64,000 nucleotides of DNA, from sequence record MZ892903.1; one strand, written 5' to 3'. Below, piece by piece: positions 44,476 to 45,230 of the stretch. Position 1 is the stretch's first letter. The number at the start of each line of letters is the position of its first letter. Origin of the DNA: Escherichia phage ELT1. The notes beneath the pieces were generated by a model. That model did not search any database. It saw nothing but the letters and a program-made list of their open reading frames with translations, and was not told where the DNA came from. A program made the translations under genes and the position numbers.

Positions 44476-45024
44476 ACCCAAGAAAACATCTACTGATCGT
44501 TGATACCACTGCAAATCCAAATATCCATTACGCACATTAAACTGATAAAACATATGACAAGGCGGTAATGACATATATTTAAGTTCAGCTGGATTCCACG
44601 CAGAAACAATTTGACGCCTATCATTCGGCAGTTTTTTAATACGATCAACAACTTCTACAATTTGGTCTACACCGCCAAAATCACGCCATTGTTTTCCATA
44701 AATTGGACCAAGTTCACCGCTATGGTATCCTAAATCTTTTGCTTGATTTTCGTAATTTTCATCCCAGACTGTTTTGCCTTGAATTAATGAATCATGCTGA
44801 ATTAATCGCAAATCATTGACATTTGTGCTTCCCGATAAAAACCATATTAGCTCAGCAATGCAAGCTTTCCAGGCGAGCTTCTTAGTCGTTACTGCAGGAA
44901 AACCTTTAGTTAAATCCCAGCGTAATTTAGTACCGAACAAAGCAATTGTTCCTGTGCCTGTTCGGTCATCGGTTTCATAACCGTTTTCCAGGATATCTTT
45001 AATTAAAAATTGGTATTGTTTCAT
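44476..45024 (-). CDS. td: Thymidylate synthase, exon 1
   Basis: Starts [26 protein letters not shown] (T4 TS N-terminus as recalled); 183 codons; exon 1 plus exon 2 = 286 aa. Confidence 0.9.
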
Positions 45025-45230
45025 TAGTTCATCCAAGAATATGTAGAAGGATATTTGGCAAAGTTAGGCTTATATCCTAATTTAACCATTTGTTTTGCTT
45101 TGCGAGTAAATCCTAAAGAACGCTCACCTTTAAGATATTGTTTTGGTGTCATAGGCCCTTGATGCATCTGCCGACAAATAAAAAGGGCCATAGCATTAGG
45201 AACATCCTTAACTTTTAATTTATTGCTCAT
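45024..45230 (-). CDS. Small basic hypothetical protein inserted between frd and td
   Basis: 68-aa ORF; ATG overlaps frd stop (ATGA) and its TAA overlaps td ATG (TAATG); no T4 counterpart recalled. Confidence 0.5.

Follow-up and report, generated by a model that had tools for sequence, protein, structure and literature searches.

A probable accessory gene between frd and td in Escherichia phage ELT1 and its distribution among T4-like phages

In phage T4, the dihydrofolate reductase gene (frd) runs directly into the thymidylate synthase gene (td), and the two overlap in the records M12742 and OZ209023. Small open reading frames (ORFs) of unassigned function are unevenly spread among T4 relatives (Petrov et al. 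2010; PMC2993671), and the free-standing homing-endonuclease cassettes of the T-even phages, including the seg and mob genes, are among the subjects reviewed in PMC2988022 and PMC2790892. We examined the corresponding junction in Escherichia phage ELT1 (sequence record MZ892903.1) using a window of 64,000 nucleotides (nt), in which a 68-codon ORF, here termed ORF B, lies between frd and td. From comparative sequence analysis, ORF B is a genuine gene that has been catalogued before and is uncharacterised, rather than a new gene. The best overall explanation, which we consider probable, is that it is a non-essential accessory gene of T4-like phages belonging to PHROG 9550.

The junction and the coding evidence for ORF B

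An initial annotation of this DNA had described a 68-codon ORF at the frd-td junction, and its coordinates and translation were found to match the ORF list, with the gene lying on the minus strand (Table 1). The frd stop codon TGA (45229..45227) sits within the ATGA that opens ORF B, the gene strand reading ...GTGTATAAATGAGCAAT..., with the overlap itself visible as ...TATAAATGAGC... at 45231..45225. At the other end, the ORF B stop codon TAA (45026..45024) and the td start codon ATG (45024..45022) have one base in common in the sequence TAATG (gene strand ...TGGATGAACTAATGAAACAATAC... and ...TCTTGGATGAACTAATGAAACAA...). The cistron overlapping frd is ORF B and not td, whose start lies 206 nt further on. 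The proposal that stop and start signals overlap on both sides of the ORF was therefore borne out, with 206 extra bases compared to T4. It was noted that ORF B is absent from T4, where frd and td overlap directly in both records cited above. The possibility that the td start had been misplaced and that the ORF is an N-terminal extension of thymidylate synthase also failed, because the two frames differ and the residues MKQYQ that open the td product line up with T4 td. Every homologue of ORF B ends in a stop codon, which is TAA in the window copy and in each T4-like one. No paralogue of ORF B was found elsewhere in the window. A weak beta_tmRNA covariance-model match (45160..45329, minus strand) spans the frd/ORF B junction; it scored 16.8 bits, where the gathering cut-off is 84 (E 0.02), and was judged to be a chance match.

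We sought to characterize the coding status of ORF B by examining its homologues. A tblastn search recovered ORF B in 237 phage records, approximately 134 of them at an identity of at least 90%. Residues 1-68 of the protein aligned to positions 1-68 of the 68-position profile of PHROG 9550 (E 1.3e-45), a family with no assigned function. The window comes from a Tequatrovirus, and a 651-nt stretch of it was 99.7% identical to Escherichia phage a51 and was fully covered by 135 of the 568 matching phage records, in which the ORF is annotated as a hypothetical protein. The copies in a51, pSs-1, vB_EcoM_ACG-C40, dhaeg_26 and MN04_00225 are the same gene, with 97-100% amino acid identity and equal position and overlaps. 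Between genera, the ratio of nonsynonymous to synonymous substitution rates (dN/dS) of ORF B was 0.08-0.28 and most differences fell at third codon positions, which indicates purifying selection on the protein rather than a chance reading frame.

The family was then examined more broadly. The family is small and confined to phages: an exhaustive profile search, run against 1.84 billion representative proteins, gave 11 matches at 50% identity. Full-length homologues were found by profile search in unrelated phage groups. One of the 11 matches, P0026 (1402 amino acids), was set aside as a tandem-repeat artefact. Approximately 40 family clusters were recorded at 90% identity, all of 42-108 amino acids, with the 42-residue entries representing truncated gene calls. 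Across an alignment of 29 family sequences, R20, M48, G52 and P55 were invariant, and P11, K34, F41, L51 and Y53 were nearly so. ORF B and 19 family members had no Pfam or NCBIfam match, and searches of PDB sequences, Pfam and NCBIfam returned nothing meaningful, whether the query was ORF B alone or the alignment of the family. The earlier statement that no known family could be recognised thus stood, in that neither these searches nor fold searches matched any family of known function.

It was noted that public records treat this gene unevenly. ORF B was left unannotated in the JS98 and JS10 records, the IME339 record gives a shortened call of 42 amino acids, and the PYPS2T record (MH809535) mislabels it as a flagellar biosynthesis protein. 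The HY03 record (KR269718) places portal and prohead-core features across the frd/td junction. Shigella phage sb4, with a truncated ORF B and a split td, was considered as a possibly older Tequatrovirus allele and was rejected because it looks like a frameshifted assembly. A full-text literature search found no study of ORF B.

Distribution of ORF B and origin of the cassette in the window

In four other genera of T4-like phages, homologues of ORF B were encountered directly upstream of td, apparently coupled to it and abutting or overlapping its start. They were found in the Klebsiella phages Marfa and PWKp16 (Marfavirus), Enterobacter phage CIP9 (Kanagawavirus), Serratia phage 4S, and the Dhakavirus phages JS98, dhaeg and MN04, as well as in IMG/VR loci. 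An IMG/VR scan with a closer alignment gave nine loci, mostly of the same phages. In Marfavirus, Kanagawavirus and Serratia phage 4S, one or two ORFs of 111-126 amino acids lie between frd and the ORF B homologue. These ORFs, together with RB32ORF229c of T2 and JD18_224, all fall in PHROG 1928, which has no assigned function; we refer to the PHROG 1928 ORF as ORF A. The amino acid identity to the window copies in the same genomes was 60-81% for ORF B, 77-84% for td and 34-46% for frd. Such an intermediate divergence of ORF B, between td and frd, would be expected if it had long resided together with td. Outside Straboviridae, phAPEC8-like phages and three metagenomic contigs carry family members in runs of small ORFs that are unannotated, and neither td nor frd lies close by; the neighbours of family members in distant phages were uninformative, comprising small unannotated ORFs only.

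Three states of the junction were distinguished in the GenBank phage collection, with approximate counts that include RefSeq/GenBank duplicates. An ORF A at an identity of at least 90% was found in approximately 363 records, including T2, RB5, RB6, RB14 and AR1, and ORF B in approximately 134 records, including the window, a51, pSs-1 and JS98. The contiguous T4-type junction was found in approximately 59 records (approximately 39 Tequatrovirus-like and 20 Dhakavirus-like), including T4, SG1 and Bp7. The direct T4-type overlap is clearly the rarest of the three states. Aligning the junction against T4-like relatives gave the same picture, in that T4 is without ORF B and T2-like phages carry ORF A there instead. 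The description of the junction as normally overlapping is accordingly true of T4, but the T4-type junction is confined to a small share of the records. The textbook frd-td overlap is a T4-centric assumption that is corrected here, as most relatives carry at least one small ORF in the interval. 

From these distributions, we infer that ORF B is an old resident of the frd-td interval in enterobacterial Straboviridae. The fullest layout would be frd - A1 - A2 - B - td, and the Tequatroviruses would carry three derived alleles, with ORF A only in T2-like phages, ORF B only in the window, and neither in T4. The initial annotation had proposed that the ORF was slotted into the junction; this holds insofar as the cassette looks imported in the present phage lineage, but not for the gene itself, given its apparent long residence in the interval. 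In T2, an AT-rich spacer of 45 nt (L005 2076..2120; ..TTTAGCTTCATAAAATGTATTATAATTTATATAAGGTACTAA ATG) with a TATAAT-like hexamer intervenes between ORF A and td. This spacer indicates that td is not translationally coupled to ORF A, and T2-type td may have its own promoter. An ORF A homologue in AlbertHofmann (Mosigvirus; L016 2747..3094) showed 94% amino acid identity to the T2 copy despite belonging to another genus, which suggests that ORF A has also been exchanged between genera. The AlbertHofmann record labels this ORF a putative homing endonuclease; we rejected that assignment, as it has no Pfam or PHROG nuclease support and the protein falls in PHROG 1928.

The nucleotide sequence surrounding ORF B in the window changes affiliation sharply over a short distance. 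The last 300 nt of frd were 96% identical to T4/T2 and 78-84% identical to Dhakavirus. The 206-nt cassette, absent from T4/T2, was 97.6-98.5% identical to the ORF B-carrying Dhakaviruses JS98, dhaeg and MN04. Positions 1-40 of td were 97.5-100% identical to Dhakavirus (JS98, dhaeg, MN04 and Bp7) and 85% identical to T4/T2, and positions 41-552 were 75-77% identical to Dhakavirus and 96-97% identical to T4/T2. A mismatch map against JS98 recorded 4 mismatches in about 249 nt, compared to approximately 1 per 5 nt in the flanks, and the near-identical tract runs from 3 nt before the ORF B ATG to approximately position 40 of td (45232..44984). On these identities, the cassette and the first 40 nt of td are best read as an introgressed patch of about 246 nt in a Tequatrovirus backbone.

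The direction of this transfer was assessed from the 5' end of td. Bp7, a Dhakavirus without ORF B and with a T4-style ATGA overlap, matches the window at the 5' end of td (CAATTTTTAATTAAAGATATCCTG, encoding QFLIKDIL). T4 and T2 have QDLIKDIF at this position, and the outgroups that carry ORF B have Q(D/E)LI. The sharing with Bp7, set against the outgroup residues, indicates that this td 5' end is native to Dhakavirus, which in turn points to transfer from a Dhakavirus-like donor into the Tequatrovirus backbone. ORF B in the window would have been acquired from a Dhakavirus-like phage through homologous recombination, which would have re-introduced the gene into this lineage, and subsequent backcrosses would have eroded the donor flanks until only the cassette and the first 40 nt of td remained. 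On the left, the crossover lies within a common AAATGA and would represent either a microhomology event or the trimming of the donor flank by backcrossing to the edge of heterology.

An AATGA direct repeat lies at each end of the cassette. It was found that deleting one repeat and the intervening DNA from the window gives the exact T4/Bp7 junction, AAATGAAACAATACC. Tequatrovirus and Dhakavirus are both polymorphic for ORF B with identical boundaries. Because a precise deletion between the repeats recreates it, the frd-td overlap of T4 is most simply explained as a deletion product.

Expression, possible function and alternative explanations

We assessed the signals that could govern expression of ORF B. 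No promoter-like or terminator-like site was found between frd, ORF B and td, and the nearest terminator-like hairpin follows gene 32. ORF B lacks the flanking promoter and terminator of its own that would characterize a moron, and its start and stop overlap its neighbours. No good Shine-Dalgarno (SD) sequence precedes ORF B or td in the T4-like phages; the sole SD-like element before td is the GGATG contributed by the conserved Trp-Met codons at the end of ORF B (..TGG ATG AAC TAA). The phAPEC8 homologue, by comparison, has its own AAGGAGG ribosome-binding site. RNA structure at the junctions did not exceed that of shuffled controls (z between -0.2 and 0.8), and a search for Rfam RNA elements in the cassette gave sub-threshold chance matches only. 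The lack of separating promoters or terminators, of good SD sequences and of RNA structure makes sequential translational coupling from frd to ORF B to td most likely, as the initial annotation had proposed. ORF B would share a transcript with frd and td, and its translation would be coupled to theirs through the ATGA and TAATG overlaps.

The ORF B product is an 8-kDa protein that was correctly described as lysine-rich, with 10 lysines and 3 arginines among its 68 residues and an isoelectric point of 10.3, and all 29 aligned family members have values of 9.75-10.6. An AlphaFold2 model built with the 29-sequence alignment reached a mean predicted local distance difference test score (pLDDT) of 85.5, with helices at residues 13-24, 29-39 and 43-50. 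This deeper alignment was used after a shallower one had given a pLDDT of 57. Fold searches of PDB and BFVD with the model found no relative, and neither the structure nor the profile significantly resembled the helix-turn-helix or any other known small DNA-binding fold. As ORF B is absent from T4, T2 and Bp7, it appears to be dispensable. Its product would most probably bind nucleic acid or an acidic partner, which is the weakest step of this proposal, and would probably act early or in the middle, pre-replicative period in host takeover, counter-defence or phage-phage competition. It would not be a component needed for the synthesis of deoxythymidine monophosphate. It is possible, although we regard it as unlikely, that ORF B represents a family of small basic proteins that is structurally novel, and that it has a specific selectable activity, either in counter-defence or inter-phage competition or as a modulator of thymidylate synthase or deoxynucleoside triphosphate (dNTP) supply. 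Such an activity, if real, would explain both the strict td coupling in T4-like phages and the recent clean transfer between Dhakavirus and Tequatrovirus. More generally, many small basic phage proteins are uncharacterised, ORF B among them, and the absence of a fold relative together with its apparent selective retention makes it a reasonable, though not outstanding, candidate for accessory-gene screens.

The position of ORF B raises the question of whether it is instead tied to thymidylate synthase, serving Td or another of the dNTP-synthesising enzymes as a small subunit, chaperone or regulator, or acting as a leader cistron that sets td translation. Such a tie would explain why ORF B always adjoins the td start in T4-like phages: across all Straboviridae loci examined, the end of ORF B either overlaps the td start or lies 0-3 nt upstream of it, td has no SD sequence of its own beyond the GGATG supplied by ORF B, and the two genes have diverged roughly in step. 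However, td occurs without ORF B in T4, T2, Bp7 and hundreds of other phages, and the phAPEC8-like and other family members lie far from td and frd, the phAPEC8 copy with its own strong SD sequence. Purifying selection on the amino acid sequence additionally shows that ORF B is more than a spacer. We therefore regard a dedicated td partner as unlikely. A still more doubtful reading is that ORF B is non-functional, being a chance frame in a spacer or the product of a miscalled td start. It is short, has no known domain and was passed over in the JS98 and JS10 annotations, but its frame differs from that of td, its stop codon is conserved, the low dN/dS values and the full-length homologues in unrelated phage groups point to a coding sequence, and the family alignment yields a confident AlphaFold2 model. 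The selection and family evidence effectively refutes this reading, to which we attach almost no probability.

The mobility of the cassette could also reflect biased inheritance, with the cassette being a selfish mobile element or a remnant or passenger of gene conversion driven by a homing endonuclease, for example I-TevI of the neighbouring td intron or a free-standing enzyme. Two genera are polymorphic for the presence of the cassette, the limits of which are exact, a near-identical tract with sharp edges is shared across genera, the intron-borne I-TevI gene lies approximately 680 nt downstream of ORF B, and one record labels ORF A as a putative homing endonuclease. Against these observations, domain and family searches revealed no nuclease motif or domain in ORF B or ORF A, fold searches gave no match for ORF B, and none of the GIY-YIG, HNH, LAGLIDADG, His-Cys box or PD-(D/E)xK motifs was found in ORF B. 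With 68 amino acids, the protein also falls far short of the size of known homing endonucleases. As for the intron, td is 858-864 nt long and uninterrupted in JS98 and MN04, two Dhakaviruses that carry ORF B, so that no I-TevI is linked to ORF B there. In the window, the part of exon 1 that lies between cassette and intron is of T4/T2 type, which leaves no continuous co-conversion tract. ORF B has moreover been kept for a long time under purifying selection in several genera. Taken together, a selfish or endonuclease-driven origin appears improbable, and an accessory gene exchanged by recombination is the reading we retain.

Neighbouring features and comparison with known systems

The features of the locus are collected in Table 1. 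The exon and intron limits of td were read from the sequence and give a total of 858 coding nt (286 amino acids), with a 5' splice-site sequence of GGGT/TAATTGAGGCCTGAG read from the window, the slash marking the splice site; the splice sites of T4 are assumed to apply here. The td intron and I-TevI arrangement is that annotated in T4 records, and the I-TevI gene is intact. An Rfam cmscan (E<=1; 43000..46200) reported no group I intron model, presumably due to the large ORF within the intron.

Table 1. Features of the frd-td region in the Escherichia phage ELT1 window, all on the minus strand.
Feature	Coordinates	Strand	Basis
frd (dihydrofolate reductase), 194 aa	45227..45811	-	ORF list and sequence
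ORF B, 68 aa, ATG start, PHROG 9550, stop included	45024..45230	-	ORF list, family matches, dN/dS, model
Left AATGA repeat, holding ATGA (frd stop/ORF B start)	45227..45231	-	Sequence; 206 nt from the right copy
Right AATGA repeat, holding TAATG (ORF B stop/td start)	45021..45025	-	Sequence
Putative Dhakavirus-type tract (cassette and td nt 1-40) inside Tequatrovirus backbone	44984..45232	-	Mismatch map against JS98
td exon 1, 183 codons; T4/T2-type from nt 41 on (96-97% identity)	44476..45024	-	ORF list, sequence, identities
td group I intron, 1016 nt, carrying the I-TevI gene (43607..44344)	43460..44475	-	245-aa ORF starting MKSGIYQIKN...
td exon 2, 103 codons and stop	43148..43459	-	ORF 43148..43462 (first ATG belongs to intron) and T4 annotation

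Other variable features were noted in the surrounding genes. An ORF of 81 amino acids (45811..46056, minus strand) lies directly upstream of frd and overlaps it through TAATG (GCGTAATGATT). It is 96% identical to RB32ORF231c of T2 and has no counterpart in T4, where a 71-nt gap precedes frd, and it represents a second small coupled ORF in the same operon that T4 is without. Between the frd.2-like and frd.1-like genes, an ORF of 97 amino acids (46370..46663, minus strand; TTG start as listed) gave no tblastn match in the T4, T2 or JS98 loci and is another variable small ORF. The Frd.2-like protein (128 amino acids; 46632..47018, minus strand) was 44% identical to T4 Frd.2 and 41% identical to T2 Frd.2, compared to neighbours that are far closer to T4 (100% for Frd.1 and 93% for Frd.3). 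These identities suggest that a divergent allele of the gene has been exchanged into a stretch that otherwise resembles T4.

Further along, gene 59 (48443..49096) and gene 32 (47438..48343) are separated by only 99 nt (48344..48442), and the homing-endonuclease gene (PHROG 7504) that lies directly upstream of gene 32 in the T4 record is absent from the window. The nrdA.1 region (42582..42907, minus strand) appears split, with an ORF of 61 amino acids matching T4/T2 nrdA.1 in two frames and a separate ORF of 36 amino acids matching its C-terminus. This could reflect either a frameshifted pseudogene or a sequencing error.

The locus is not a new kind of system. As in the T4 junction (M12742), the ATGA that holds the frd stop also provides the start of the following cistron, and this start codon is preceded by the same sequence as in T4; the difference is that the next cistron in T4 is td, while the window has ORF B followed by td coupled via TAATG. 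RB32ORF229c and its PHROG 1928 relatives in T2, RB14, AR1 and JD18 are likewise small ORFs in the same interval that are polymorphic among close relatives and found across genera. They encode an unrelated protein of 105-126 amino acids (115 for RB32ORF229c), and in Marfa, PWKp16, CIP9 and 4S the PHROG 1928 ORF co-occurs with ORF B and lies upstream of it. The seg and mob cassettes resemble ORF B in being inserted between genes, in varying in presence among close relatives and in having moved with short flanking tracts; ORF B differs in having no nuclease domain, in being several-fold smaller, and in being under purifying selection across genera. Compared to the genome plasticity described for T4 relatives (PMC2993671), the general phenomenon is the same, and here it is confined to a single-gene slot in a nucleotide-metabolism operon in which coupling is kept. 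The junction thus offers a clean, small example of what appears to be cross-genus exchange of a single-gene cassette that leaves the translational coupling of an essential operon unbroken.
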